Part shown: positions 257-37,985 of the stretch, piece after piece
Numbering within the stretch: position 1 is the stretch's first letter
How the letters are laid out: the number at the start of each line of letters is the position of its first letter
Source: Promethearchaeota archaeon
GTDB lineage: Archaea > Asgardarchaeota > Lokiarchaeia > Sigyniarchaeales > SOKP01
Reading direction: 5' to 3'
Assembly (NCBI GenBank): GCA_048941285.1
Contig: JBHLNS010000028.1
Location: forward strand, 1 to 44,293
Length of the DNA: 44,293 nucleotides
Program-made: the position numbers and the translations under genes
Notes under the pieces: model-generated
What the model was told of the DNA's origin: nothing
The model's database searches: none
Seen by the model: the letters and a program-made list of their open reading frames with translations, nothing else

Positions 257-592
257 TTATGTTTTGACCTTGTATCTATCCTTTTGGTTGAAAAACGTGA
301 TATCAGCATATCCTTTATAGATTTTAGCTGAGTGTTTTACTCCCTTTGGAATGAAATACCGATCGCCTTTTCTAAATACAAACTCTTTACCATCTATAGT
401 TAAATCAATTTGACCCTCAAGAATGACCCCCCATTGACTCTTGTGAGAGTGTTCCTCAATAATTACATCTTTTTCAAATTCCATGTATAATATTTGAAAG
501 TGTTCTCCCTGTGCTAGATATGCTTTAAGCCCATCTATAGGGATATCTGCTCTTGGTAATTCTAATACTGGTTCGGGAAAAATTTCTAACAT
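257..592 (-). CDS. Cupin-2 domain protein
   Basis: EHSH...QWGVILEG and GD..FIPKGVKH cupin motifs. Confidence 0.85.
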   Translation of the reverse strand: MLEIFPEPVLELPRADIPIDGLKAYLAQGEHFQILYMEFEKDVIIEEHSHKSQWGVILEGQIDLTIDGKEFVFRKGDRYFIPKGVKHSAKIYKGYADITFFNQKDRYKVKT

Positions 593-635
593 ATATATTC
601 ATCCATTCGATAATATTTCAATCTAAGTTTTATAA

Positions 636-1202
636 TTAATTTTGTTTAAGACTAATCCGTTCTCCTAATTTATAGTAATTGAAATCTCCTCCTGTAGTCC
701 AAATAATCGGGTGGATTTTTCTCCAGTCAAGTTTCACATTCCCTTCTTCTTCGAAGGTGTATTGTTGATTTACATAAGACTTAACTACTTTGCCAATAAT
801 TCCTTCACCATCACCATAGTTGAGGATTTCATGTACTTTGCATTCTATATTAACTGGACATTCACGGATCATTGGAGCTGTTTTTAATTCTCCATAAAAA
901 TTATCAAAGAGAGAACTTTTATCAATATCACGTCCAGATTTGCTCCCACATATACTTGTTTTTTCCACGAGATCTTCCGATGGAATATTTACACTAAAAG
1001 TCATATTCTCATGAATTCCGATTGCAGTATAGCGTTTTGGATATAAACTGAAGAAAATATATTTACCAAAATCAAATGGGCAACTATATCCGATTACCAA
1101 ATAATTTGGTTTGTCATTGACATTTGCACCAACCAAAATCACTGGTAATGGACTGAGTAGATTTCTTTCAGTTACTTGCTTATTTAAATTTTTTTCTTTC
1201 AT
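636..1202 (-). CDS. Flavin reductase-like FMN-binding protein (flavoredoxin, DIM6/NTAB family)
   Basis: PLPVILVGA, FSVNIP, CGSKSGRDIDK, APMIRECPVNIECKV. Confidence 0.85.
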   Translation of the reverse strand: MKEKNLNKQVTERNLLSPLPVILVGANVNDKPNYLVIGYSCPFDFGKYIFFSLYPKRYTAIGIHENMTFSVNIPSEDLVEKTSICGSKSGRDIDKSSLFDNFYGELKTAPMIRECPVNIECKVHEILNYGDGEGIIGKVVKSYVNQQYTFEEEGNVKLDWRKIHPIIWTTGGDFNYYKLGERISLKQN

Positions 1203-1214
1203 TTTTTTTAGCCT

Positions 1215-1826
1215 TTATGGTTTTTTTACAATATAATCAATAACACAGGTCCGCCCCGTATTAAAATAATTTCCTTTTAAAATTTGTCTTTTTTCTTTAT
1301 AAATTATCTCGAAATCCTTAAAATATTTATCAGGTTCATTATCATCATAAAAACTATGAAGAAATTTGTCATTACTCCCTATAGTTACAACTTCCCCCGG
1401 ATTTTGTTCTATTCCATTACCATAATGAGTATCGTCCTTTGAAAGGAAGTTTACATAACAAAGTCCTCCTTTTTTCAGCACTCTATACATTTCTTTGATG
1501 GCAGTACCTGTATCAATCTTATTTAAGTGAAATATAGAATTATAGGAAAATACAAAACTAAAAAAATTAGAGTCAAATGGTATTTTTCTCATATCTGCTT
1601 TAATGATTTTTAGGTTGATTCCATTTTCTTCACAATATTCATTAGAATAGTTAATTGAATCCTCCGAAATATCAATCCCATAAGCTTCAAAACCATTTTC
1701 TTGAAAAAATGCCAGCTTAGGGTTTGGACCTCCCGCTCCACAATCTAAAATATTTTTCTCTAAAGGAATTGAATTCGTAAACCTAAGGAAATTATACAAT
1801 GAAGATGGATAAAAATTTTGGATCAT
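1215..1826 (-). CDS. Class I SAM-dependent methyltransferase
   Basis: ILDCGAGG motif I, GIDIS, ADMRKIPF, EMYRVLKKGG. Confidence 0.85.
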   Translation of the reverse strand: MIQNFYPSSLYNFLRFTNSIPLEKNILDCGAGGPNPKLAFFQENGFEAYGIDISEDSINYSNEYCEENGINLKIIKADMRKIPFDSNFFSFVFSYNSIFHLNKIDTGTAIKEMYRVLKKGGLCYVNFLSKDDTHYGNGIEQNPGEVVTIGSNDKFLHSFYDDNEPDKYFKDFEIIYKEKRQILKGNYFNTGRTCVIDYIVKKP

Positions 1827-1869
1827 TTTCCATATCTACCTCAAATCTGTTAGGTATTTAATCGTTCTT

Positions 1870-2451
1870 TTATAATTTTTTATACTTCTTACCAATCTCA
1901 AATGCTGGTGCCAATTTTTCCCCAATTTTCCAATAATTATTTATAGAATATGCATAAGTTTTTAATTTGGCAATATCAGGTATTCCTTCTGTTAAATAAT
2001 CCTCATCTGCATAAACATTTACTATCTTTCCAATGAAAATTTCATGACCTTTCTCAATCTCTACTAAATCCTTGATTTTAAAGGATTTGATAACCTCACA
2101 TTCAAGATTTAAAGGTGAAAGACTTGCCATTGGAGCAGTTTTGAGATCCCCATAAAAAACATCAAAGACTTCTGATTTATCTGTTTCTTTTCCAGATACT
2201 ATACCACAATAATCAACCTTTTCTGCTAAATCTTCAGTAGGTGTATTGACACTGAATGTTCGATTTTCATTAATACCAATGTTAGTATAATGAGTCACCC
2301 AAGAAGCTATTGAAATCATTGGAGGATCAGCTTCTACAATACCAACGTATGCAAGTGTCTCAAAATTTGGCTTTCCATTTACGTTCGCCCCTATAAGAGC
2401 AACTGGCATAGGAAATAAATAAGCCCTTGGAGTTATTTTACTTTTTTTCAC
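1870..2451 (-). CDS. Flavin reductase-like FMN-binding protein (flavoredoxin), paralogue of 636..1202
   Basis: PMPVALIGA, FSVNTP, CGIVSGKETDK, PLNLECEV, HEIFIGKI; GTG start. Confidence 0.85.
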   Translation of the reverse strand: MKKSKITPRAYLFPMPVALIGANVNGKPNFETLAYVGIVEADPPMISIASWVTHYTNIGINENRTFSVNTPTEDLAEKVDYCGIVSGKETDKSEVFDVFYGDLKTAPMASLSPLNLECEVIKSFKIKDLVEIEKGHEIFIGKIVNVYADEDYLTEGIPDIAKLKTYAYSINNYWKIGEKLAPAFEIGKKYKKL

Positions 2452-2493
2452 TAAATTCCACTTTTAATAATTATATATATGTATAAAAGAAAA

Positions 2494-2515
2494 AGATGAC
2501 ATAAATAGATGACAT
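2494..2515. promoter_or_regulatory. Tandem direct repeat AGATGACAT-N4-AGATGACAT, possible transcription-factor site upstream of the flavoredoxin gene
   Basis: Perfect 9-mers at 2494-2502 and 2507-2515, next to a TATA-like tract at about 2471-2488. Confidence 0.3.
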
Positions 2516-2632
2516 TAATGAACTAAGAACGAACTTTGAACTCATATTCAAAATTTGTACTAAAACTGCCAATTCGTTCTAATAGACTGTTATTTTGTTT
2601 TTTAGTGCAGAATTTAAAGATAAAATGATATT

Positions 2633-2995
2633 TTAACCACAACAATTGGTATTTGAACTAGTTCCACTGGCAGGTGCACAACCACAACTATTATCAGTTA
2701 CTTCTCCTTTTTTTGCGTTTTTAGCAACACCTCTTGCATTCCATAAACAGCCACATCCTTTTCGTTCATTCAGGATAATTGCTTGAGTGGGACAATTTCT
2801 TTTACAGGCACTGCATTCTGTACATAAGTCCGGTCTTGGAATTTCATATTTACCAGAACTATTATCTTGTGGAAGACCAAATGGGCATACTTCAGCACAA
2901 AGACCACATCCATTACACACATCTTTATCAATGAAGATTAAAACATCTTTAATAAATTCAGTAAAATCAAATGATTCAAGATTAGTTTCTGTCAT
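2633..2995 (-). CDS. hgcB: HgcB-like 2x[4Fe-4S] ferredoxin with Cys-rich tail
   Basis: CNGCGLCAEVCP and CTECSACKRNCP (HgcB-type CxECxAC), then GCGC, CGC and terminal CCG. Lies directly downstream of the hgcA-like gene, with a GGAGG SD. Confidence 0.75.
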   Translation of the reverse strand: MTETNLESFDFTEFIKDVLIFIDKDVCNGCGLCAEVCPFGLPQDNSSGKYEIPRPDLCTECSACKRNCPTQAIILNERKGCGCLWNARGVAKNAKKGEVTDNSCGCAPASGTSSNTNCCG

Positions 2996-3040
2996 TTTCC
3001 TTACCTCCTATTTTTATACATCTTTTATTTTTTATTAAAT

Positions 3041-4702
3041 TTATGTAGAAAATATAAATCCTAAAATTAGAAGTACTATATTTAGGATAATTAAAATCTT
3101 ATTTGTTAAATTAAAAATGGGATATTCTTCTTGGATTTCTCTAGGACTTGTAGCCATTGAGTATCCACTAAATGACATCGTTGAAAAGAATGTAATCCAA
3201 AAATAAAAACCAAGTTGCCATAGAATATAATAGATATTATAATGGATTAAAAAAGATAACCCTCCCAAGAGAACCATATTAATAATACCAAAAAAGATAC
3301 CTTTAAAAATAAATCTCCTTGTGAATTTTGAAATTGGGAACAATATTGCTATAATTAAATTTGCTATAATTATCCAGAGCGATAATTCACCAATCCACCA
3401 TAATTTATTGAACCAAGTTAGAATTGAAAACAGTAATACTAAAGCAATTAAAGGCAAGATGAAAATTTTTCGGAATAAAAATGAGAGATGAGTTACTCCA
3501 GCACGAATTCTATGGTATAGTGTAAATTTAGCTAGTTTCATTCGATCAGGTTTTTTAGCAGGATTTTCATCAAGAAATTGAGGTATTTGTTTTGACCAGA
3601 TTGGTCCATATCTAATTCTAAAGGGAAATTCTTCTGAATTCTTAGGAAGTTGAGGTATAGCGACACCTCCGGCTGAAAGTTGTGGAAGTAGTAAGGTTTT
3701 CTTTTTAGTGATATTTCTTATATCTGTTGCATCTATTACCTCAAGAAGTTGTTTATTTCCAAAATCATTGCCACGAGCAGCACACCATACATTTATGCCG
3801 TTTGAATCAACACATAATACCCAAGCATCACGTCCTTTAAGGTCACGCATTACCTTAATATATGTAAATTCATAATTAGCAGTGACAATTATAGGTGATT
3901 TTTCATCAGGATTTCCAGATTTATAAATACCAGGTTCTATTGGTACACGATCAACTTGTCCTGTGAATATACAACGATAAATTCTCAACTGAGATCGAAA
4001 TCCCTTAAATCTTTTTATTCCGGGTCGATAATATCCCGGCTCATTAGTTCCATTATCAGTAACTTTTTGTAATTCTATTGCTTGGATTGAACCGTGTTTC
4101 CATTTTGCCAGTGTATTGATTTTATAACCTATTGGCTCTAGATATTTAAAAAACCATTTAATTAGATACGTACTTTGTATTCGTAAGCGCCTTAATTTTT
4201 TCTTATATCGCCATCTTTTTAGTTTAAATATTAGCTTCCAAAAGCCAGTAGGTACGAATTCAGCAGCTAAAATTAAACGTCCATTTGGTTTCAACATTTT
4301 CCATACTTTCCTAAGAAAAAGTTGTTGTTCTAAAGGACGAAGTTCAGATAACATAAATTTACTAACTATTAAATCTTGAGAACGAGTTGGTATAGTCAAA
4401 TCTGTAAATGAACCCGTTTGGTATAATAACTTTCCTCCAGATAAATCAGATGGAAAGTTTTTCATAGCATAATTAATCATTTGAAAGTTTTGATCAATCG
4501 CAATTACATTATTTCCTTTTTGAGCCATTTTTGAAGCGAGCGTTCCTGTACCGCATCCAATTTCTAAAATTGACTCGGAATTATTAATTTGATTTAAAAT
4601 CCAGTTTTGTACTTCAATATTTACTCCTTTTGTAAGAGCTGTAAACTTAGAATCGTAAGATTCTGGTTCTTCTTCTAATTTTCGCATATAGACGACAGCC
4701 AT
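3041..4702 (-). CDS. hgcA: Fusion of a class I SAM methyltransferase, an HgcA-like corrinoid-binding (CdhD-like) domain and a transmembrane domain
   Basis: N-terminal ILEIGCGTG / VIAID / KMLKPNGRL. Middle EPGIY..GNPD..SPIIVTANY, GINVWCAARGNDFG (Cys TGT at 3782-3784), LLLPQLSAGG, YGPI. C-terminal 4-5 hydrophobic helices with FSGYSMATS (HgcA has FTGxxxxTS). Confidence 0.8.
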   Translation of the reverse strand: MAVVYMRKLEEEPESYDSKFTALTKGVNIEVQNWILNQINNSESILEIGCGTGTLASKMAQKGNNVIAIDQNFQMINYAMKNFPSDLSGGKLLYQTGSFTDLTIPTRSQDLIVSKFMLSELRPLEQQLFLRKVWKMLKPNGRLILAAEFVPTGFWKLIFKLKRWRYKKKLRRLRIQSTYLIKWFFKYLEPIGYKINTLAKWKHGSIQAIELQKVTDNGTNEPGYYRPGIKRFKGFRSQLRIYRCIFTGQVDRVPIEPGIYKSGNPDEKSPIIVTANYEFTYIKVMRDLKGRDAWVLCVDSNGINVWCAARGNDFGNKQLLEVIDATDIRNITKKKTLLLPQLSAGGVAIPQLPKNSEEFPFRIRYGPIWSKQIPQFLDENPAKKPDRMKLAKFTLYHRIRAGVTHLSFLFRKIFILPLIALVLLFSILTWFNKLWWIGELSLWIIIANLIIAILFPISKFTRRFIFKGIFFGIINMVLLGGLSFLIHYNIYYILWQLGFYFWITFFSTMSFSGYSMATSPREIQEEYPIFNLTNKILIILNIVLLILGFIFST

Positions 4703-27992: not shown

Positions 27993-28151
27993 ATGTCGGA
28001 AAAAAAAAGTTTTAAATCAGAAATTAGAAATCTTGCGAAAGATAATGAAAAGATTTTATATGGGGAGAATAAATCAGTTTGCTTTGCCTGTGGAGAAGAA
28101 ATTGATAAAAATGCTGAAATATGCCCATATTGTAAAACAACTTTGAAATAA
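27993..28151 (+). CDS. Small zinc-ribbon protein (52 aa), missed by the ORF track
   Basis: MSEKKSFKSEIRNLAKDNEKILYGENKSVCFACGEEIDKNAEICPYCKTTLK*; CxxC-x10-CxxC, with AAGGT upstream. Confidence 0.75.
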   Translation: MSEKKSFKSEIRNLAKDNEKILYGENKSVCFACGEEIDKNAEICPYCKTTLK

Positions 28152-28223
28152 TTATATTCACATCCCTTAAAGTTAAAGCAATATTATAATTTATATCAAA
28201 AAATTATAATAAAAGGCGTTAAT

Positions 28224-28721
28224 GTGAAAATTAGTGAAGAAAGTGTTAAAAAAAGAAGTTATATCGGTGTTTGGATTCTTATCTTTCTTGTAATAACTAC
28301 CCTTAGTTTTATTTTATCTTTATTAATCAATCCAATTTGGTGGATCTTAATTCCTTTGTCAATATTCTTTATTTCTATATTTCAATTAATCTCACGGTAT
28401 TTCTGGTTAGAGAAGAATAACTGTCCAAGTTGTAACACTCCAATAAGTAAATATGCAGAATTCTGTAAAAATTGTGGTCTTAAATTATGGTTTAAATGTC
28501 TTTCATGCGGGAAATATCTTAGAGTAAATACTAAATTTTGTGAGAATTGTAATAGGGAACTTAAACATACAGATGAGGAAATAAGAACTTTCAGAAAGGA
28601 ACCAACAAAAAAAGATTCTTATTTCCCAAAAATGCCAAATTTTTGTTCTAATTGTGGTAAAGAAGTGAAAAAGAAAGGAAATATTAAATTTTGTGAAGAG
28701 TGTGGAGAGAAATTAGATTAG
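28224..28721 (+). CDS. Membrane protein with multiple zinc ribbons (DZR-type)
   Basis: Two N-terminal TM helices followed by six CxxC motifs. Confidence 0.75.
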   Translation: MKISEESVKKRSYIGVWILIFLVITTLSFILSLLINPIWWILIPLSIFFISIFQLISRYFWLEKNNCPSCNTPISKYAEFCKNCGLKLWFKCLSCGKYLRVNTKFCENCNRELKHTDEEIRTFRKEPTKKDSYFPKMPNFCSNCGKEVKKKGNIKFCEECGEKLD

Positions 28722-28725
28722 TTTT

Positions 28726-29304
28726 TTAATTATTTGATTTATCTTGATTTTTAAAAGTAATTAGAACTGATAAAAAAAACCACAATAATGCATAAATAGC
28801 AACATTTCTGATATAAATTATTATATCTTCGTTATAATAAGCTAAATTTAAAAAATATACCGAAAACAGCCAAGATATATTAACCATAATAATAGGTAAT
28901 GCATATTTTTGAGAGAATATCTCCCTTTTCTTCCAAATCAAATAAATATCGACTATGACTGGAACTATATGGATATAATCATAATATAGGAAAAGGAAAA
29001 AGAATTCATAGAAAATGATTATTCCAAGAGGTATAATTGAGTAGATTAAGAAATTATTTATATATGGATTATCACGGTAAATAAACCATGCCAGTGAGAG
29101 TGAAAAATACCATTGGCTTATTGTGAAAATCACTAAATTAGTGTCAGGATCTCCGTGTTGTCTAATACCGTAAAGAAAAGTGTCTAAAGGTTGCCAAGAA
29201 AAAGGGATTAAAAATTGGAATAACAGAGAAATAAAGGTAGCAATAGAGATCTGCAAAACTGTTATAACAGGTAAATCAAGCTTTTTAAAACTAATTCTCG
29301 TCAT
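28726..29304 (-). CDS. Hypothetical integral membrane protein
   Basis: About 6 hydrophobic segments. Confidence 0.6.
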   Translation of the reverse strand: MTRISFKKLDLPVITVLQISIATFISLLFQFLIPFSWQPLDTFLYGIRQHGDPDTNLVIFTISQWYFSLSLAWFIYRDNPYINNFLIYSIIPLGIIIFYEFFFLFLYYDYIHIVPVIVDIYLIWKKREIFSQKYALPIIMVNISWLFSVYFLNLAYYNEDIIIYIRNVAIYALLWFFLSVLITFKNQDKSNN

Positions 29305-29506
29305 TTGAATTTTTTCAAAAAAATTTAATATTTTCTAAAATGATGCCAGCTTTATGATTCTTAACAACTCTAAAATCCCTAAAAAAAAATATTAATGATA
29401 AATACAGAATTTCTCTACTGAAGAATGAAATTAGAATGGGTTTTCTATAAAAATTTTATAAATAATTGTACTATTATCTTCTCAAAAAACTAAATATAAG
29501 GTTAAA

Positions 29507-30172
29507 ATGAAGGATATTGGAAAAAAGCTTCTACTTTTCATATTTGTTTACATCATTTATCAGAACATATTCTACATAATTCTTGTACCAGAGATATACT
29601 CGATTCCTATTTATGTTGTATATTTACTTACTGCCTATATGTTTACTCTAGCAGATACTCTAATACGTTCCATTCCAGAGGAAAAACACGCTTCAAAAAT
29701 TTTTGATATTTTATTATTATCCATGCTTTTATTATCTCCATTCTTCCTAATAGGGGCGTTTCTTGAGAACACATTGCTTATATCACAAATTTTCCCTTTC
29801 TGGAATAACATAATTATCAGTTATTTAGGATTTATTCTATATATTACTGGTGCTCTACTTATATTCGTAGCAAGGACACAATTGGGACGATTTGGAAGTG
29901 CGGAATTAAGCACCGAAGAGGATCATCAACTCTTTACCCAAGGGATATATAAATACATTAGAAATCCCATGTATTCTGGCGGTTTAATAGCAACTGTTGG
30001 ATTCTGTCTTGTTTTCAGATGTATCATTACGCTTATTATTATATTTATATATACTTTTTTAGTTTACAGAATGCGCATAATTGAAGAAGAAAAAATCTTA
30101 CTAAACAAATTTGGCAAAGATTATGAAGAATATAAAAAAAAAACTAAAAAACTAATTCCATTTCTTTATTAA
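29507..30172 (+). CDS. Isoprenylcysteine carboxyl methyltransferase (ICMT/PEMT)-family membrane protein
   Basis: HQLFTQGIYKYIRNPMY, RIIEEE..L..FG..Y.EY. Confidence 0.85.
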   Translation: MKDIGKKLLLFIFVYIIYQNIFYIILVPEIYSIPIYVVYLLTAYMFTLADTLIRSIPEEKHASKIFDILLLSMLLLSPFFLIGAFLENTLLISQIFPFWNNIIISYLGFILYITGALLIFVARTQLGRFGSAELSTEEDHQLFTQGIYKYIRNPMYSGGLIATVGFCLVFRCIITLIIIFIYTFLVYRMRIIEEEKILLNKFGKDYEEYKKKTKKLIPFLY

Positions 30173-30191
30173 AGAAATTCAATTCAGAACT

Positions 30192-30232
30192 GATAAATTC
30201 AGCGTCTGATTTCAATGATAATTACTTTGAAA
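30192..30232 (+). repeat. Intergenic 41-bp repeat, copy R1
   Basis: GATAAATTCAGCGTCTGATTTCAATGATAATTACTTTGAAA; aligns without gaps to R2-R5. Confidence 0.85.
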
Positions 30233-30382
30233 AAAAAAAAAAAGAAAAATCTTATGATTCGATTTTAGGATTCCCATAGTTTTTTGTTGAGAATGATTGC
30301 ACATGTGAAAGAATGCCAAGTAGTCAGAATCGATAAATCTATCAAAATAACTTATTACTAAATTATTAATTTAATCAGCATT

Positions 30383-31057
30383 TCATTTTTGCTTAGTCCT
30401 TATAACTATTTCCTTATAAAACTCTTTTATCTTAGTTTTTAAACTTTCATTAAATTTTTTAATATCTGAACGATCTTTTTCTGGAAATTTATTAATCTCC
30501 TTCATATATAGAGCTTTAAAAAGCCCTTCTGTGTTTTTTAAACGTGCAGCAAAATCCGTACAAATTTCCCTTATATCCTCTTCTAATAGCTGATTTGTTG
30601 TTATATCTAAATTTACGCTTATCATGAGCATTTCTTTGTTTCCACGAGCCCATTCTGAAGGAATTTCAAAATAATAATTCAAGGATGATGGTACAGTGCT
30701 TGACCGATGGACAAAGAAACCTTCTTTAAATACTTGATCCATTATATTTGTAATTTGAATAGATAATTCTTCGTCAAGACTACCCTCGGGATGTGCATAG
30801 AAAACGAGAGGACCTTTTCTTCGAGCAAAATAAATTAATGCTATAGTAGTTTCAGTAGCGATTTTAATTTCTGGAATTAAAATAAGAGTATATACTATTT
30901 CGGGATCTAAGAGTTCATCATCAATATAGGTCTTACTTATTGGAAATTTCGCCCCATTCTTATGTACTTTTAAAGATTGACGTCGCAGACCTATACCACC
31001 AAATTTTTGAGCAACTGAAATTATTTCCTTTCTATCTTTTTCAGACATCACTTTCAT
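30383..31057 (-). CDS. Longin/uDENN-like domain protein
   Basis: IALIYF.RRKGP.VF and NYYFEIPSEWARGNKEMLMISV recall the F-x4-GP and ARG motifs of uDENN/longin domains. Confidence 0.55.
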   Translation of the reverse strand: MKVMSEKDRKEIISVAQKFGGIGLRRQSLKVHKNGAKFPISKTYIDDELLDPEIVYTLILIPEIKIATETTIALIYFARRKGPLVFYAHPEGSLDEELSIQITNIMDQVFKEGFFVHRSSTVPSSLNYYFEIPSEWARGNKEMLMISVNLDITTNQLLEEDIREICTDFAARLKNTEGLFKALYMKEINKFPEKDRSDIKKFNESLKTKIKEFYKEIVIRTKQK

Positions 31058-31312
31058 TATTGAACACTTTTATGTTATATAATTAAACATAAATATTTAT
31101 AGTTTTTGTTTTCTTTTTGATTCATATATTGAACAATTTGATGAACAGATATAAATAATAACATTTGCAGAATATCAATTAACAAAATTCGAAATGATTA
31201 ATGTTTGAGTACGCAATTTTATGCGTATTTTATTTTGTCTGACTTCAAATTATATTTATTTGTCTTTTTCAATATTTTGAAACCGCAAGGTTAAAACTTT
31301 TTTAAATTTTGT

Positions 31313-31382
31313 CCCAATCTCATGTGATATTGGAATGGAAAGGTAAATTCAGAGTCATATCTCATTGGAAATTCCTTTGAGA
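31313..31382 (+). repeat. Intergenic repeat, copy R2 (extended form)
   Basis: CCCAATCTCATGTGATATTGGAATGGAAA followed by core GGTAAATTCAGAGTCATATCTCATTGGAAATTCCTTTGAGA (31342-31382). Confidence 0.85.
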
Positions 31383-31419
31383 GAATTTGATAAAATTTAT
31401 CAAAGATCTCAAAATTGCT

Positions 31420-32208
31420 TCAACTTTTCTTTTCCTTTATTACTTCCTTAAGTACGAATATCCCACCAACAATAATTAATAAGTAGGGAATGCTTAATAT
31501 AAAAAATACTATTAGCATTGCTAAATCACCATAATTAGCTATTAAAAGGGTTACAAAAAAGGCAAAATATCCAAAGTAACGTAATCCAACAAATAGTAAA
31601 ATTATAAGTGTTATTCCTGAAATTAGACAAATAATACTTCCAATAAATAGATATTTTTTCAATATCAACGCAATAATTGCTAAAATTATAGTAACCAGAC
31701 TGATAAAGAACAATATAATAATAAATATACTGAAAATATTCAAGATTCCATCCACAACTCCTATTAATATGCCTAAAAATCCCCCAAGCAGACAGAACGC
31801 AAATCCAGATCCAATATTCTCTTTTTCCGCTACTATCTCTTTTCTATCTTCAGGAAGCTCTGTTTTTCTTGTTAGATAAATACCATATATACTACCACCT
31901 ATAATTAAAAAGAATGGGAGTCCATAGAAGGGAAATATAGACATAATTACAAGTATAATTCCTGAGATTAAGCAAATAATATTTCCGGCTCTTAGATTTT
32001 TTAATTGTATAATCGCTCCAAGGACGGGTACCAGACTAGCTCCTGCAATATAATAACCATGCAAGCTATGACCCCCCCAGTAATAAAACATAGGCTGATA
32101 CGCGAGACCCATAATTATACCCACTACTGCACCTATTATACATAAAGTTGGAGGTACTGATTTATGTGGCAATTTTTCAGGTTTCTCTTTAATTCTAGAA
32201 GAATTCAT
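31420..32208 (-). CDS. Hypothetical membrane protein with internal duplication
   Basis: Two halves: LCIIGA..G.IICLISGI..LIIGG and FCLLGG..GSIICLISGI..LIIVGG. Confidence 0.7.
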   Translation of the reverse strand: MNSSRIKEKPEKLPHKSVPPTLCIIGAVVGIIMGLAYQPMFYYWGGHSLHGYYIAGASLVPVLGAIIQLKNLRAGNIICLISGIILVIMSIFPFYGLPFFLIIGGSIYGIYLTRKTELPEDRKEIVAEKENIGSGFAFCLLGGFLGILIGVVDGILNIFSIFIIILFFISLVTIILAIIALILKKYLFIGSIICLISGITLIILLFVGLRYFGYFAFFVTLLIANYGDLAMLIVFFILSIPYLLIIVGGIFVLKEVIKEKKS

Positions 32209-32329
32209 TTTGAATTCGCCAAAAAAGTATAATTATTGATAAATTCCAGATTCTTTTTAAGTTTTTACTAGGGATGGAGTATGTTCTTGAACATTATTTT
32301 TATATTTCGTTTTATCTTTTTCACGATAG

Positions 32330-32370
32330 GATAAATTCAGAGTCTGATTTTAATGAAAATTCCTTTGAAA
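32330..32370 (+). repeat. Intergenic 41-bp repeat, copy R3
   Basis: GATAAATTCAGAGTCTGATTTTAATGAAAATTCCTTTGAAA. Confidence 0.85.
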
Positions 32371-32504
32371 TACATTGAGACGAGTAGGAAGGAGTATGTT
32401 TTTGAGCTTAGATTTAGTTTTTATTTTTTAATTAGTATCTTAAGCATATTAAAGGAATATTAAAAATAATATCATCATTCTAAGAAAAAGGGAGTTTGAA
32501 TATT

Positions 32505-33317
32505 TTAATCATTTTTTAAAAAGCTTATAATTAGTTGGCTTATTAGTTTAGGCTTCTCCATGAGAACTAAATGTGTTCCACCTGGAATAACTTCAAGTCG
32601 CGCATTAGGTATTGCCTTAGTCATTTCTTGCATAACTTCTAATGGATAAAGTTGTTCTTTTTCTCCATCGATAATAAGTGAAGGGCTTTCTATGTTTTTC
32701 AATTGGTCTAACGTGAAGTTTGGTTCTCGCTTAGCCATATCCATTTCTTTTTCGATTAACTTTAACCAATTATCGGGATCAGACGCTACTTTTTCATATG
32801 CTCTCCTAATAAATTTATATTCTTTAGGTAAATTATTAGGATCCACATTACTAAAACTTTCAAAGATTTCTGGATAGAAATTAGATATATTATATGGAGT
32901 ACCACATAGCACTAACTTATTTACTAATTCGGGATACTCTAGACCAAGAACTAAGGAAGTACAACCCCCATCACTCCAACCAACGAAACTAGCTTTTTTT
33001 ATATCCAATTTTTCCATCAGTTGAGAGATATCTGAAGCAAAGAGCTGATAACTTAGAGGTTTGTCTGAATCAGTTGTCCTCCCATGTGCTCGAGTGTCTG
33101 GAGCGATTATCCGAAAATGTTTTGCTAATTCTTTGATTTGGAAAAACCAACTAGTATAATCCACCATACCACCGTGTAATAAAAAAACGGGCTCTCCAGT
33201 ACCAAACGTGGCATAATACATTTTAATATCTCCAATATCGACATAATCTTCAACAATGTTTTTTTTTTTCCAAGCATTAAATTTAGCCTTACCTATCAAC
33301 ATTTTGAATACTATCAT
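32505..33317 (-). CDS. Alpha/beta-fold hydrolase
   Basis: LLHGG, PDTRAHGRT, GWSDGG nucleophile elbow, C-terminal GTH. Confidence 0.9.
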   Translation of the reverse strand: MIVFKMLIGKAKFNAWKKKNIVEDYVDIGDIKMYYATFGTGEPVFLLHGGMVDYTSWFFQIKELAKHFRIIAPDTRAHGRTTDSDKPLSYQLFASDISQLMEKLDIKKASFVGWSDGGCTSLVLGLEYPELVNKLVLCGTPYNISNFYPEIFESFSNVDPNNLPKEYKFIRRAYEKVASDPDNWLKLIEKEMDMAKREPNFTLDQLKNIESPSLIIDGEKEQLYPLEVMQEMTKAIPNARLEVIPGGTHLVLMEKPKLISQLIISFLKND

Positions 33318-33508
33318 CGTATATACCTCTATGTTTTTTTTATTTGTAATTGAATAAGGATTCTAATAAAGTTTGCTGTTCATTAAAAATTAAATTGAAA
33401 CCAATTTATACTCTTATTTTCACCTATTTTTTAGGACTTTTTTATCAATTCCTGCAGATATTATGATACCATTTTTTTCTGCTTTTGAGGAAACATATTA
33501 ATTTTACA

Positions 33509-33554
33509 GGAAAGGTAAATTCAGCGTCTGATTTCAATGAAAATTCCTTTCAAA
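33509..33554 (+). repeat. Intergenic repeat, copy R4
   Basis: GGAAA followed by GGTAAATTCAGCGTCTGATTTCAATGAAAATTCCTTTCAAA; terminal GAAAGG/CCTTTC inverted repeat. Confidence 0.85.
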
Positions 33555-33681
33555 AATCCTAAAAAAATTATATAAGTAAACTGTACTTCTTTTTAGATGA
33601 CGTTGATTCAGTTAAAAATTTTATACATTATCAGCAAAAAGACACAAAAGTAAAAAGAAAAGTTAAAAAGAATCATTAAAT

Positions 33682-33730
33682 TTGACTATCATACATGAAT
33701 GCATAGTCAATTAAATTCATAGTATGAATT
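33682..33730. promoter_or_regulatory. Two adjacent perfect palindromes upstream of the PNPOx-like gene (putative operators)
   Basis: TTGACTAT (33682-33689)-N13-ATAGTCAA (33703-33710) and AATTCATA-G-TATGAATT (33714-33730). Confidence 0.45.
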
Positions 33731-33746
33731 CAAACTGGGATATATA

Positions 33747-34256
33747 ATGGCTAAACAAAAATTTGATTTTCATTTTATTAAAAATATAATAAGAAAGAAA
33801 ACATTTGGTATTTTAACTACCTTAAATAACGACGGAAGTCCTCATACATCTGGAATTATCTACGGTGTTTCTAATAAAGATGATAAATTTGCATTGTATC
33901 TTTTGACTTATAAAAAAAACAAAAAAGTAAGAAATATTCAGAGGGATCCTAAAGTTTCTTTTGTTATACCATTTCCACATCATATCCTGCGTTTTATTCC
34001 TTCGAGTGCAATTACAATTAATGGTACTGCAAAAATATATCCCGTCAATACGAAGGAAATCATACAGGTGTTTGAAGAAAAAAAGATGCTAAGAATGCTT
34101 ATTGCTGATATTGACTTTGAGAATGACACAGAGTATATATTTATTAAGATTGAACCAAAATCTAAGATTTTTTGTTATGGAGTTGGATTTAGTATTTGGA
34201 AACTAAGAAGCTCTCACACAACTGGAGGATATACTGTAACTATACCTGACGAGTGA
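33747..34256 (+). CDS. Pyridoxamine 5'-phosphate oxidase-like split-barrel protein
   Basis: LTTLNNDGSPHTS, KVRNIQRDPKVSF. Confidence 0.85.
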   Translation: MAKQKFDFHFIKNIIRKKTFGILTTLNNDGSPHTSGIIYGVSNKDDKFALYLLTYKKNKKVRNIQRDPKVSFVIPFPHHILRFIPSSAITINGTAKIYPVNTKEIIQVFEEKKMLRMLIADIDFENDTEYIFIKIEPKSKIFCYGVGFSIWKLRSSHTTGGYTVTIPDE

Positions 34257-34294
34257 TGAACATTCGACTATTTTAAATCTCTTATATAACACTG

Positions 34295-34402
34295 TCAGAA
34301 TAAAAAAAATGAAAATAGAAAAACAAAATAAGATAAAAGAATAAGAGATAAAACTTTTTTGTTTGGTAATAAGATTATTGCGTTATTATCTTCGATTGAC
34401 AT
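34295..34402 (-). CDS. Possible 35-aa hydrophobic small protein or gene remnant
   Basis: GGAGGGAG SD upstream of the ATG; MSIEDNNAIILLPNKKVLSLILLSYFVFLFSFFLF*. Confidence 0.25.
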   Translation of the reverse strand: MSIEDNNAIILLPNKKVLSLILLSYFVFLFSFFLF

Positions 34403-34508
34403 TTTTTCTCCCTCCATAATATGCTCTACAATGAAATCAATTTAATTTTTATGTTTTAAATATCTAGGAATTTTTTGATCTCATTCATTATCTTTTCTCT
34501 TTTAATTA

Positions 34509-34578
34509 CCCAATTTCCTGTGAAAATTGGATGGAAAGGTAAATTCAGAGTCGGATTTCCATGAATTTGTGCTTGAAA
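34509..34578 (+). repeat. Intergenic repeat, copy R5 (extended form)
   Basis: CCCAATTTCCTGTGAAAATTGGATGGAAA followed by core GGTAAATTCAGAGTCGGATTTCCATGAATTTGTGCTTGAAA (34538-34578). Confidence 0.8.
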
Positions 34579-34748
34579 AAACTTACCAAAAAGAATGAAC
34601 TCAAAAAAAAATGTATATAAGGAAAATTAACCCTATTTTAAATCACTAGCTAAATTTTTTCCTAATATAGCGAAATTAATATAAATTCCATTGAAAAATT
34701 AACAATCCTAATAGTTATTTACATTAAAAAAAAAGTTGTGAGTTAAAC

Positions 34749-35495
34749 GTGGTAAAATTTTATCATTGTGAGAATTGTAAAAAAGTTTATAAAACTGAAA
34801 GCTGGATAGGTGAAGTACATGCATATAACGGAGTTTGTCCTTCATGTTTTGCAGAAGAACAAGAAGAAAATCAAATACACCAAGAAAGTGTAGAGGATCT
34901 AAAATTTAATACATATGGTACTGAACTAATTAAAACAAATGAAATTGATTTTGAAAACATTCAGTCTTCTCCAATAGAAATTGAGAAAAATCTACTCTTA
35001 AGTTTAGAAAAGAAAGCTAACGAGGTTTTATATGGTAAAGGATCAATAGATGTTCTAATTAAGGAAATTAAAGATGAGCTTATAGATAAGGCAAAGCAAA
35101 GGATTGAAGAAACAATTCAAAGTTTTGATGTGAGTAAAATTGAAGCTCAAAAAGTTATGAATTATACCGAAAAGACTTTTGATTATTTAAGTGAATATAA
35201 AGATTATATGGAAAATGTGGTTAAAAAACTATGGGATAAACCAAAAATGAAGGTAAAAACGGCGCTAGAGAAAGTCTATAAAGAAGCAATGGAAAATATG
35301 ACCAAGGACGTTGCAAAGGATGTCATCCTTAATAAAAAGACAACATTAAAAACTGTGTTTGGAAAGGCAGTAAAATGGTATAATATTTATTCAGATACAG
35401 AAAATGTCAATGAACTTGCAAAAAAAATGTTTTTACACCCCTTTATTGAGATCCAAAAGAAACTCTACACTCTTCCATTCTACTCTTCCACGTAA
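34749..35495 (+). CDS. Hypothetical protein with N-terminal zinc finger and helical body
   Basis: CENC...CPSC; GTG start. Confidence 0.6.
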   Translation: MVKFYHCENCKKVYKTESWIGEVHAYNGVCPSCFAEEQEENQIHQESVEDLKFNTYGTELIKTNEIDFENIQSSPIEIEKNLLLSLEKKANEVLYGKGSIDVLIKEIKDELIDKAKQRIEETIQSFDVSKIEAQKVMNYTEKTFDYLSEYKDYMENVVKKLWDKPKMKVKTALEKVYKEAMENMTKDVAKDVILNKKTTLKTVFGKAVKWYNIYSDTENVNELAKKMFLHPFIEIQKKLYTLPFYSST

Positions 35496-35592
35496 TTAGG
35501 GTTTCTATTTTTAATTTTTAAAGGTTGTGAATTAAAAATAATTAGAAAAACATATAAATTCCATACATTCTTTTATAAATTAACTACTCTAA

Positions 35593-35725
35593 GGGGACTT
35601 GGTGTAGCCCGGTGGCACAGCAGGCTCCAGATCCTACAAGCAAAAGCTGTTCCGTGGACACCTGTCGGTCGAGGGTTCAAATTGAAGCTTAAACTCTAAG
35701 CTTTCCGAGATTCCCTCAGTCCCCA
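35593..35725 (+). tRNA. trnW: tRNA-Trp(CCA) with two introns (anticodon loop about 35631-35659; T-loop about 35682-35711)
   Basis: Acceptor GGGGACT/AGTCCCC, D stem GTGT/GCAC, anticodon stem GCAGG/CCTGT with CCA at 35627-35629, T stem GAGGG/CCCTC with TTCAAAT loop. Removing 29+30 nt gives a 74-nt cloverleaf; CCA end not encoded. Confidence 0.9.
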
Positions 35726-35736
35726 CATTTCTTTCA

Positions 35737-36039
35737 ATTGATATTGATATTTTTGGAGATGCTAATGATGAAGATATCGGTGCAATTAAATATTGTGAAA
35801 GTCATTTTAAAGATTTAAAGAAAATCATTGAATTAGAGACAAAGAATAAATTAAATCAAATAATTCAAAGATATTTAATTATAAGAAAATTTAAAATTCT
35901 TTGTTGGTGTGTTGAACCTGAAAATGAAACTGAGAATTATGGGATTTCAATTGGGTTTAAGAAAAATGATATCTTATTTTCAATTTTAATAGCAGAAAAA
36001 GATTTTCTTTTTGATGAATTTAAACAACAAATGCAATAA
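35737..36039 (+). pseudogene. Headless 100-codon open frame abutting the tRNA 3' end
   Basis: IDIDIFGDANDEDIGAIKYCESHFKDLKK...EFKQQMQ*; stop-free in very AT-rich DNA, with no standard start and no room for a promoter. Confidence 0.5.
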
Positions 36040-36071
36040 ATAATTGTATTTATTTATCCAAAATCAACAAT

Positions 36072-37985
36072 TTAAAGATTTTTTAATCTCTCTTGTTCTT
36101 TTTGCTTCTTTTTTTCCAATTTTTTCTTTTGTTTTTCTAGTTTTTTTCGCTTTTTGGCTTCTTGTTTTGCTTCTTTTTCTTTTTGTTTTCTTTCTTGTTT
36201 CAACCTTTCTAGTTCTTGTTGTTCTTTTTCAATAGCTTGTATTTCTTTTCTCTCACTCTCTATACGTTCTCTTTCTAATCTGAATTTCTCTTGCTTTTCC
36301 ATTTCGATTTTTTCTAATCTCTCTTTTTCTAATTGTTCTTGTTTTAATATTTCTTTTTCCTTTTGAATTCTTAATAGACGTTCTTTTTCTTGCATTTCCT
36401 TTTCTAGCTTTTCTCTTGCTATTCTCTCTCTTTCTAATCTCTCTACTCTCTCCTTTTCCAAATGAACTCTTTCTCTTTCTTCTTTTTCCTTTCTTTCTTC
36501 TTCTTCGATTTCAAAAAGCCATTTATTTATCTTTTGAATTAATTCTTGTTTTTCTTTTAATGATAATCCTAAATTATGATCTTTTTTCAGGTATATATTA
36601 GCATATTTACTCATTTCCCATATTTTTTTCTGTTCTGTCGTTGTCGCGCTAACGCCAATTTGTCTCATGGTTTCCCTGGCGATTTCAAAAGCTTTTCCAA
36701 CGGATCTCATCTCATAATTCTCTTGGATAACTTTTATTAAATATAAAAGAATTGGCTTAATTTCAGCAATAGGTGGACTTGGTAATGGTTTAAATTCAAC
36801 TCTTTGAGATTTTAATGTTTCTAACTCAAATTTTTCTTGTTTATAATCTGATATTTTAGTTGATCTGATATCGTTACCTTGAATGTTATTTTGGGGGGCA
36901 TATGTTGGTTGTTCTACTAGTTTTGGTAAAACTATTGGTTCTTTTTTCCCTTTTCTTTTAAATAGCTGCGGCCAGCTGATAAACTCAAAGTTGCGTTCTT
37001 CTGCTGAAGCGAAAATTGATTTTTTGGAAGTCTTTTGAGAAACTGAGCTAATTTGTTTTGAAGTAATTGGTTGGATATTTGATCCTAGCATTAATGCCGC
37101 TTGCTCTATTATCGAGAATAGATACATGGGATCAAATTCAATAGCAGAATAAATGCTTCTCAATGTGACAATATTATCTTCAATAATACCGAGATTTATA
37201 GAAGATATGGTTTCCTCTAAAAGCTTATCGGCCGCAAAGTTAATCGCATCTAAGCCTGCTGTTGAATTGAGGTAAGTAAAATCATGATTGGCAGAGAATA
37301 CATACATTTTATCCGACACTAAAATTTGATTAAAAAAGTCCCAGTGGGCACTTAAAATCATATGCCCCCACTTTGAGATTATGTAAGAATCTTCTGTACG
37401 GATTTTATCCATCATCTCTAAAAATATATCCTTATAGGGTATAAACAGATTTCGCATCAAAGCCCCTTTTACAAAGGTCAGGTGATCCTCTGATTTATTG
37501 GATAAATCCAGAGGGATTTTTATAACTTTCTCAGAGATAATTACGTCGTGATCATCCTCTAACGTGATATCTCCAGAAGTCACCATCAAATCATAAGCAA
37601 AATCGGGTAAAACCAATCCCGTTAGAATTCTATTATCGGTAATATATTTCCCAGATTCTAATTCAAATTTTAAAAAATAATATCCCAAACCAAAGAGATA
37701 ATGAAGCGTTCCTTGTGCGGTCTCAATTGAATAGTCATACCCGCTAAAAAATATAACTGGATCTGAAATAATTTTTAACACTGGATGGTGGGCATAGTTT
37801 CCTAACGTAGGATAACCTAATAAATCACTCCAACTAGGAATTATAAATAGTGAGTTATTGGGATATAATTTATTTTCCAATTTTTGTTTTTCAATTCTCT
37901 CTCTTTCAAACTTTTCTTTCTCAATTTGCTCCTTTTCTAACCTTTCTTTTTTCAATTGTTCATCATTTACTCTTTCTAATCCCAT
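36072..37985 (-). CDS. Hypothetical protein with ER/K-rich charged helical termini and a central globular domain
   Basis: N-terminal KKERLEKEQIEKEKFERE; about 145-aa E/K/R/Q-rich C-terminus. Confidence 0.75.
   Translation of the reverse strand: MGLERVNDEQLKKERLEKEQIEKEKFERERIEKQKLENKLYPNNSLFIIPSWSDLLGYPTLGNYAHHPVLKIISDPVIFFSGYDYSIETAQGTLHYLFGLGYYFLKFELESGKYITDNRILTGLVLPDFAYDLMVTSGDITLEDDHDVIISEKVIKIPLDLSNKSEDHLTFVKGALMRNLFIPYKDIFLEMMDKIRTEDSYIISKWGHMILSAHWDFFNQILVSDKMYVFSANHDFTYLNSTAGLDAINFAADKLLEETISSINLGIIEDNIVTLRSIYSAIEFDPMYLFSIIEQAALMLGSNIQPITSKQISSVSQKTSKKSIFASAEERNFEFISWPQLFKRKGKKEPIVLPKLVEQPTYAPQNNIQGNDIRSTKISDYKQEKFELETLKSQRVEFKPLPSPPIAEIKPILLYLIKVIQENYEMRSVGKAFEIARETMRQIGVSATTTEQKKIWEMSKYANIYLKKDHNLGLSLKEKQELIQKINKWLFEIEEEERKEKEERERVHLEKERVERLERERIAREKLEKEMQEKERLLRIQKEKEILKQEQLEKERLEKIEMEKQEKFRLERERIESERKEIQAIEKEQQELERLKQERKQKEKEAKQEAKKRKKLEKQKKKLEKKKQKEQERLKNL

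Follow-up and report, generated by a model that had tools for sequence, protein, structure and literature searches.

A stretch of 44,293 nucleotides from a Promethearchaeota archaeon (contig JBHLNS010000028.1 of GenBank assembly GCA_048941285.1; Asgardarchaeota, Lokiarchaeia, Sigyniarchaeales, SOKP01 in GTDB), the whole of which is called the window below, contains five copies of a short repeat that part a row of unrelated genes one by one. The question raised by this locus is what such repeats are for, and how single genes come to be set between them. A first-pass annotation, made from the letters of the window only, had read the copies as recombination sites of an undescribed gene-capture system, resembling an integron or a set of dif modules and acted on in trans. 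We followed up this reading by comparison with related genomes and found it supported by insertions relative to empty sites, by the exchange of units and by a uniform polarity of the copies, with none of random scatter, tracking of gene starts or invariant gene content being observed. Our best reading, with a probability of roughly 0.55, is that the repeats serve as joints in a cassette system that resembles an integron and is acted on in trans.

The five copies R1 to R5 (Table 1) all lie on the + strand and align without gaps at spacings of 1150, 988, 1184 and 1024 bp, as had been described from the letters. The motif G(A/G)TAAATTCAG(A/C)GTC is invariant in 5/5 copies, a 13-mer giving five exact matches, all +. 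Coordinates are given here for 50-nt cores; the 41-nt cores of the earlier description begin 8 nt further in. In the window's own genome (G000; 3.55 Mb, 101 contigs, 29.7% G+C) a 14-mer with at most one mismatch found 18 matches compared to 1 for the reversed control, and a profile hidden Markov model (HMM) recovered the five window copies at E 4e-13 to 6e-11, so that the repeats are not due to chance. Eight extra one-mismatch matches of the 14-mer are identical to the consensus at only 20-26 of 50 positions and are therefore chance hits. Every consecutive intergenic gap holds one copy, the enclosed open reading frames (ORFs) running -, -, -, + as annotated, and the ORFs around the five repeats are oriented +, -, -, -, +, + from left to right. 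The additional left arm with a CCAAT...ATTGG hairpin is indeed common to R2 and R5. The proposed TCAG-N3-CTGA dyad holds in part: it is intact in R1, R3 and R4, with CATA in R2, whose right half is diverged (CATATCTCATTGG), and CGGA in R5. The weak sixth copy suspected at 29397 is not supported, being missed by a 127-copy profile in an 8-kb search at E<=10 and again in a 6.9-kb search of pieces from boundaries and empty sites which covered its 200-nt stretch.

These repeats belong to a family of about 50 bp with the core AAAGGTAAATTCAG-M-GTCTGATTTCAATGAAAATTCC. In G000 the profile HMM finds 13 copies at E<0.001 and one weaker one, all intergenic: five (+) on C39, these being the window's five copies, four (-) on C69, two (-) on C19, and the remainder on C1, C4 and C51. 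Of the genus's other genomes 24 were searched with a sequence-only covariance model, and all 24 gave matches, at 1-47 copies each. Outside the genus, single weak and partial matches (E 0.002-0.009) were obtained in 4 of 16 genomes of the order's other genera, the best reaching 20 bits in one genome. A 28-mer has at least 126 exact matches among species-representative genomes, all in records labelled as Asgard archaea, and 0 in viral contigs. In the literature we found no description of this repeat element.

Across 127 copies conservation reaches 82-100% in nearly all columns of a stretch of some 35 nt, AAAGGTAAATTCAG-M-GTCTGATTTCAATGAAAATT, of which the central M is A in only 54% of the copies; conservation ends sharply on the left and fades over about 10 nt on the right. 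Such position-specific conservation between species, beside flanks that cannot be aligned, points to recognition by a protein. Three short dyads occur in the element and none spans the whole of it: the two best ones in the core are AATTCAGA-G-TCTGATTT (7/8) and TTTCAATG-N7-CTTTGAAA (7/8), and the third, found in some copies only, is a 9-bp hairpin with a 3-nt loop. This perfect hairpin is part of a left module, TAAATTTTGTCCCAATTTTCTGTGAAAATTGG, present in 19 of the 78 copies first examined, some of which have up to about 190 nt of further sequence in common; a different upstream module with GGAGTATGTTCTTGAGC precedes 9 of the same 78. In G000 the hairpin module was not found on its own, the hairpin occurring only with R5, and a search for stand-alone half sites, as a possible dif or primary site, gave one right-half match inside an ORF and otherwise matches at chance level. 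A structured RNA was rejected as an identity for the element, RNAalifold giving 0 consensus pairs on 14 copies and Rfam 15 yielding no match at E<=1 either for 28000-37000 or for four array loci (47 kb in total). Two further candidates were discarded by eye, namely a C/D-box, of which the spacing does not fit, and small conserved ORFs in or beside the core, of which the reading frames differ between copies.

A second motif linked to the arrays was seen as well. It reads GGAGTATGTT(C/T)TTGA(A/G)C, or in another rendering GGAGTATGTTCT(T/A)GAGC, often with GATTTGAGATGA before it, and flanks R3 at 32276-32292 and 32391-32407 (+). Its 5 whole-genome matches all fall in the array regions of C39 and C69 (the latter at G000:C69:87833, 89636 and 100104) on the strand of the repeats, and in relatives it stands about 45 nt upstream of 9 of the 78 copies.

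How the copies are distributed was examined in 39 loci of 12 genomes with 128 copies, the loci being picked solely for holding matches. Neighbouring copies within 5 kb have the same strand in 84 of 85 pairs, and 32 of 33 arrays are uniform; arrays hold up to nine copies at a median spacing of 1205 bp (range 277-4256), with mostly 1-3 ORFs in the intervals. Nearly all copies (126/128) are intergenic. The genes beside them face either way: on the left 65 genes run in the direction of the element and 55 against it, and on the right 59 and 63. In a complete 3.3-Mb genome 22 copies occupy about 12 places, with the strand alternating from cluster to cluster; the polarity is therefore local, and a replication-linked strand bias is ruled out. 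Two pairs of full copies, at L057:8913-9190 and L060:5074-5446, are separated by just 277 and 372 nt that contain no ORF, and may represent 'empty' units or the remains of deletions.

A uniform strand of the copies next to genes running either way argues against a promoter, a terminator or a miniature inverted-repeat transposable element (MITE), and bears out the annotation's remark that the copies fit poorly as promoters or terminators; nor do the copies track gene starts. The view that the element is a transcription signal of its neighbours (promoter, operator, terminator or element of an untranslated region) could draw on a TATA-like TTTTTAAATTTT in the left module, and on the position of four of the five window copies upstream of a gene start on some side. 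Besides the independence of gene direction, it is met by distances that differ between gene ends, the median from the element being 66-96 nt to a facing 3' end and 133-202 nt to a facing 5' end, which therefore puts the copies outside promoters, and by the position of R1 between two convergent gene ends; we consider it highly unlikely. A non-autonomous mobile element that inserts itself in intergenic DNA, similar to a MITE, a repetitive extragenic palindrome (REP) or a bacterial interspersed mosaic element (BIME), would match the short, intergenic, multi-copy and genus-specific nature of the repeat and its small palindromes. This explanation is also very unlikely. Copies scattered over the genome in random orientation are not what is found, the copies being strongly clustered and of one strand within arrays; the DNA between copies is itself variable instead of consisting of conserved genes split by insertions; no terminal inverted repeats span the element; Y1/RAYT (REP-associated tyrosine transposase) genes are absent from five of five genomes; and neither G000 nor the complete genome G006, which both have arrays, contains a TnpB, IS110, serine or Y1 enzyme.

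The arrays are insertions relative to empty orthologous sites. To the right of the window's array lies a conserved tRNA-like gene, and 20 orthologous loci of this gene (L066-L085) were compared with the window. The genes to the left of 29304 and to the right of 36072 are syntenic in most of them, and repeats occur in only one of the 20, that of G001. The six island genes (29507-35495), among which unit 0 at the left end, are absent from the orthologous loci, except that L066 (G001) has unit A and L074 part of unit E. Just 152-250 nt part the conserved left-hand gene from the tRNA-like gene in five loci, and in seven others the gap measures 0.8-3.3 kb and has unrelated content with no repeats. 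The gap between the 192-aa gene and the tRNA-like gene is a hotspot, with repeat arrays only in the window and G001. Content between the repeats, which the annotation had proposed to compare between relatives, does differ: the array that G001 carries here is another one, sharing only unit A with the window (85.7% identity in amino acids, 85% in nucleotides over 1010 nt), with other neighbours on both sides, and this homology runs from the stop of the gene (30381) to the right edge of the R2 core (31380).

A second locus gives the same picture. Downstream of the FlpD gene (on C4 in G000), 24 orthologous loci were compared, 22 of which extend at least 700 nt downstream. In eight of these 22 a copy stands 9-95 nt past the stop codon, followed in one case by another; in two more a copy is found farther downstream, and the other 12 lack the repeat. 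FlpD and all 11 copies point the same way. Five of the empty loci have one downstream neighbour in common, and in three filled loci this neighbour is displaced by about 590, 1030 and 920 nt, the inserted DNA being bounded by the repeat. The locus of G000 itself is rearranged and uninformative. No degenerate copy was detected at the empty loci, the best score being 0.8 bits compared to a mean maximum of 2.8 for shuffled sequences, and the borders of the island likewise showed none. At L081 a match of 9 bits to the repeat model, above all 40 shuffles (maximum 5.9), was seen on the opposite strand, about 160-200 nt upstream of the tRNA-like gene and close to where the conserved flank gene begins; this match may be due to chance.

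Units are exchanged at the repeats. When all flanks were compared with one another, at least 250 nt of left flank proved common to 19 pairs of copies and as much right flank to 24 pairs; in 17 and 22 of these, respectively, the copies come from different loci and have nothing in common on the other side. Two copies enclose a carboxylesterase unit of 1.95 kb in each of three species (94-96% and 84-87% nucleotide identity), with DNA beyond both bounding copies that is unrelated between the species, and a GNAT acetyltransferase unit is found in arrays of five genomes with different neighbours each time. In every alignment that was inspected the homology stops at one edge or the other of the conserved core. 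The genes carried by the units are of accessory types (alpha/beta hydrolases, GNAT, methyltransferases, HAD, M28 peptidase, beta-lactamase fold, GrpB, acyltransferase, TPR and beta-helix surface proteins), and those flanking the arrays are housekeeping genes such as class-I aminoacyl-tRNA synthetase, ribonucleotide reductase, thermosome, a helicase-ERCC4 nuclease and thiolase. A contig ends within 270 nt of a copy in at least 5 of the 39 loci, which fits population variation at the joints and also shows the fragility of assembly there.

Where in the repeat the crossover occurs is suggested by two kinds of sequence comparison. In the pairs sharing the left unit only, the core mismatches number 36/289 in the left half and 124/442 in the right half, compared to 78/374 and 108/572 in the pairs sharing the right unit only, so that each core half is linked to its own side with a switch near CAG-M-GTC (Fisher odds ratio 0.40, p 1.5e-4, for 39 pairs that are non-independent). 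In addition, two truncated copies stop right after TTCAG(C), both at the downstream end of an array: the right junction of the FlpD insertion in G007 (L244) reads ...ATGGAAACGTAAATTCAGC with native sequence directly after it, and a copy in G024 (L092) consists of the hairpin module and GGAAAGCTAAATTCAG followed by unrelated DNA. We would place the breakpoint at the centre of the core, at TCAG-MGT-CTGA. A scan for solo halves in about 220 kb around 40 arrays gave the G024 copy alone at the predicted place and none in seven control categories, a single case being too few for statistics.

The same data have to be weighed for the main rival, homologous recombination of the RadA type, possibly after DNA uptake, between repeats that are kept for another reason, for example as the site of a chromatin, insulator or silencing protein or as a small RNA gene. 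Homology of shared units that stops at the core edges is expected of any crossover inside the repeat, modules of up to about 190 nt common to some copies offer enough homology, excision and reinsertion by homologous crossovers would keep the direct orientation as well, and no dedicated recombinase was found. Left unexplained are the existence of the sites, their directionality and their position at unit borders only. Two truncated copies that break at one central position also speak against it, and the linkage of the core halves to their own sides fits a preferred central crossover better than random ones. The small RNA variant is contradicted by the lack of pairs in RNAalifold and of a match in Rfam. 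On balance we regard homologous recombination as unlikely, and we infer that conservative site-specific recombination, by way of a circular intermediate, would be the process at work in the cassette system.

In which respects such a system resembles known ones can be read from the architecture. As in integrons and in clusters of attC sites lacking an integrase (CALINs), direct and family-specific sites part small, mostly one-gene units of accessory function (hydrolases, acetyltransferases, methyltransferases), the units vary between relatives and recur in other arrays, and the recombinase need not adjoin. The repeat is, in contrast, a directional duplex sequence with neither the R''/R' signature nor a long imperfect hairpin; genes take either orientation and have upstream regions of their own, whereas those of integrons are promoterless and co-oriented; several small arrays per genome stand beside housekeeping genes; and IntI is absent from five genomes. 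The absence of the attC signature that had been remarked upon holds, as 0 RYYYAAC...GTTRRRY pairs 30-130 nt apart were found on either strand of 29301-35600, with 1.7 expected from shuffles, and GTT is absent from both strands of the core and left-module consensus. When the five copies were folded as single-stranded DNA on both strands, eight of the ten folds had z values of -0.81 to +0.46; R1 alone folds better than shuffles (two folds), by means of a hairpin which, from the dot-bracket string, lies outside the core.

The array is not a member of the integron family, since attC signature, hairpin, IntI and co-oriented promoterless ORFs are all missing. A canonical array without integrase whose attC sites have diverged has in its favour the direct sites parting mostly single-gene accessory units, and the published archaeal integrons and CALINs with canonical attC sites, which are reported to be enriched in Asgard genomes (PMC9668308). 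With no attC pair in the array, eight of ten folds no better than shuffles, genes pointing both ways and a sole tyrosine recombinase that scores 98 bits against an integron-integrase cut-off of 265, we judge it extremely unlikely; an 18-mer of the core motif is also absent, in either orientation, from one supplementary text file of PMC9668308. Aloposons, considered as an integron-like candidate, proved irrelevant, being transposons with giant genes that reside at tRNA sites (PMC8813620). Nor does a 2026 preprint on Asgard viruses, in its available part, concern this element.

Two other kinds of system come close. In the pdif (XerC/XerD) modules of Acinetobacter plasmids the sites have the 11-6-11 layout of Xer and flank a module in inverted orientation, and further elements exploiting Xer are known as IMEX. 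The likeness to pdif modules consists of small gene modules bounded by short sites, moved there in trans by a housekeeping recombinase of the host and here perhaps by XerA; the difference lies in the orientation of the sites, direct here in 32 of 33 arrays. A host Xer recombinase is present, with one strong homologue in each of five genomes. A dif site has two inverted arms of about 11 bp around a spacer of 6 bp (4-10 bp), as stated in PMC2958812. The dyads of the core consensus have 8-bp arms (7/8) with a 7-bp spacer and 11-bp arms (9/11) with a 1-bp spacer, that of the optional left module has 11-bp arms (10/11) with a 3-bp spacer, and none is 11-6-11. The cassette system does not appear to be a set of pdif modules. 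In Neisseria, intergenic mosaic elements (dRS3 repeats) and 'minimal mobile elements' exchange by transformation and by homologous recombination between conserved flanks or repeats, and there too short conserved intergenic repeats mark the points at which gene-sized units are exchanged; those repeats, however, are not known to form uniformly oriented arrays with one unit per interval.

As to the enzyme, whole-genome searches for five recombinase and transposase families (tyrosine recombinases, PF00589; serine recombinases; Y1 transposases, PF01797; TnpB, PF07282; IS110) in five genomes place none on the contig of the window, in agreement with the annotation. PF00589 is represented by one protein in G000, G006 and G002 and by two in G023 and G001, with one strong match per genome. 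That of G000 (G000:C30:39424-40347, on a contig other than the array's) passes the archaeal XerA model NF040815 at 235 bits (cut-off 220) and fails the integron-integrase model; its closest solved relative is a XerC-like tyrosine recombinase, entry 4a8e (E 1e-37). Its gene is directly upstream of orc1/cdc6 (G000:C30:39424-41678; L106:6425-8679) and therefore probably beside a replication origin. No intact serine recombinase gene was found in the 5 genomes, one broken gene being present in G023, and Y1 transposases were absent from 5 of 5, the control search having matched 6 of 14 reference genomes. TnpB occurs only in G023 (21 PF07282 matches; none in G000 and G006), transposon load thus varying sharply between members of the genus and not following the repeat family, and IS110 only in G001. 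Among the five families XerA alone is therefore found in all five genomes. It is the leading named candidate for the enzyme, at rather long odds; a recombinase of an unrecognised kind is at least as likely.

From these elements a mechanism can be proposed. Each repeat would be a directional, double-stranded site of about 50 bp in a chromosomal array of gene cassettes, and the unit between two sites would measure 0.3-4 kb and usually comprise a single gene that points either way and has an upstream region to itself. A site-recognising protein would pair two copies and exchange strands at their centre, within TCAG-MGT-CTGA. Recombination of two direct copies would then free the unit as a circle with one site, and this circle could recombine with any resident copy, or rarely with a pseudo-site, resulting in insertion. 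In this way all sites would stay in one orientation and arrays would accrete as in an integron, the enzyme working in trans. More tentatively, and at somewhat less than even odds, Loki-type Asgard archaea would own a gene-capture system free of an integron integrase, in which a directional 50-bp duplex site, exchanged within TCAG-MGT-CTGA, allows single genes to be cut out together with their promoters and set down in many places on the chromosome, with XerA at a non-dif site or an unrecognised recombinase as the enzyme.

A number of points weigh against the cassette reading, next to the non-independence of the pairs in the linkage test. No recombinase or transposase was found in or beside the arrays whose ORFs were scanned, and the best dyads of the core do not show the 11-6-11 layout of Xer sites. 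Empty loci have no copy, so that a first insertion would need a pseudo-site or another route, and the island of the window has six units and five joints. The exact breakpoint is supported by just two truncated copies, a third candidate (L255) having proved to be a degenerate full copy. Homologous recombination across a repeat of 50-150 nt predicts identical homology boundaries. Nearly all of the genomes, finally, are metagenome assemblies, in which misassembled joints are possible.

Table 1 Features of the variable island and its flanks in the window
Feature	Position	Strand	Description	Evidence or remark
Conserved left flank gene	28726..29304	-	192 aa, no Pfam family	ortholog adjoins tRNA-like gene in 12/20 loci
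Variable island	29305..35530	.	six gene units and five joints	boundaries approximate
Unit 0	29507..30172	+	PEMT/ICMT-type membrane methyltransferase, repeat on right only	PF04191 1.5e-15
Repeat R1	30184..30233	+	50-nt core, central base C	nhmmer E 3.6e-11
Filler	30234..30382	-	between R1 and unit A	aligns with sequence after five other copies
Unit A	30383..31057	-	224-aa protein, no Pfam family	
Repeat R2	31313..31383	+	hairpin-bearing left module 31313-31333, core 31334-31383	
Unit B	31420..32208	-	262-aa ORF, no Pfam family	hydrophobic by eye
Repeat R3	32322..32371	+	core	
Unit C	32505..33317	-	alpha/beta hydrolase	PF00561 4.5e-28
Repeat R4	33506..33555	+	core, nearest the family consensus	E 3.7e-13
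Unit D	33747..34256	+	pyridoxamine-5'-phosphate-oxidase-like flavoprotein	PF01243 4.5e-12
Repeat R5	34509..34579	+	left module 34509-34529 with hairpin CCAATTTCC/GAAAATTGG, core 34530-34579	
Unit E	34749..35495	+	248-aa protein, no Pfam family, repeat on left only	
Conserved right flank	35593..35725	+	tRNA-like gene and upstream promoter-like stretch	

The island (6.3 kb) is thus set between a conserved gene and a tRNA-like gene (Table 1). Its units have relatives elsewhere: paralogues of unit C are found in arrays of G006, G011 and G002, and at this hotspot L074, a locus without repeats, has a 79% match to the C-terminal part of unit E. Sequence like the filler after R1 is part of an intact gene for a beta-helix (NosD-type) surface protein in two of its five matches (L055, L058), and the filler, read by eye as coding sequence, looks like what is left of the 3' end of a surface-protein gene, encoding the membrane anchor at the C terminus, and so like a decayed piece of gene inside a unit.

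The tRNA-Trp that the annotation had placed beyond the array stands as a conserved tRNA-like stretch, present in 24 of 40 other genomes of the genus, and falls short as a tRNA call, ARAGORN and Rfam recognising it neither in the window nor in six related loci. By eye it has a CCA anticodon and at least two introns, and some relatives (L068, L080, L083, L077) have a further insertion of about 40 nt near its 5' end. An ORF of 637 aa without Pfam family (36072-37985, -) stands beside the tRNA-like gene in 9 of 20 loci; its DNA is rich in short T/C-rich direct repeats, and it probably encodes a charged coiled-coil or low-complexity protein.

The textbook means by which single genes are stacked and swapped is the integron, which needs a dedicated integrase and folded attC sites. 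In the present case the same architecture extends across an Asgard genus, yet with a different site, free gene orientation and many small arrays. If the cassette reading is true, it would represent a second, independent solution to gene capture, would point to a new activity of XerA or to a new recombinase, and would give a handle on the movement of accessory, often bacterial-type enzymes (esterases, acetyltransferases, methyltransferases) in the lineage nearest to eukaryotes. The 50-bp site is moreover usable as a marker for variable islands in fragmented Asgard assemblies, of which the contigs often break there.

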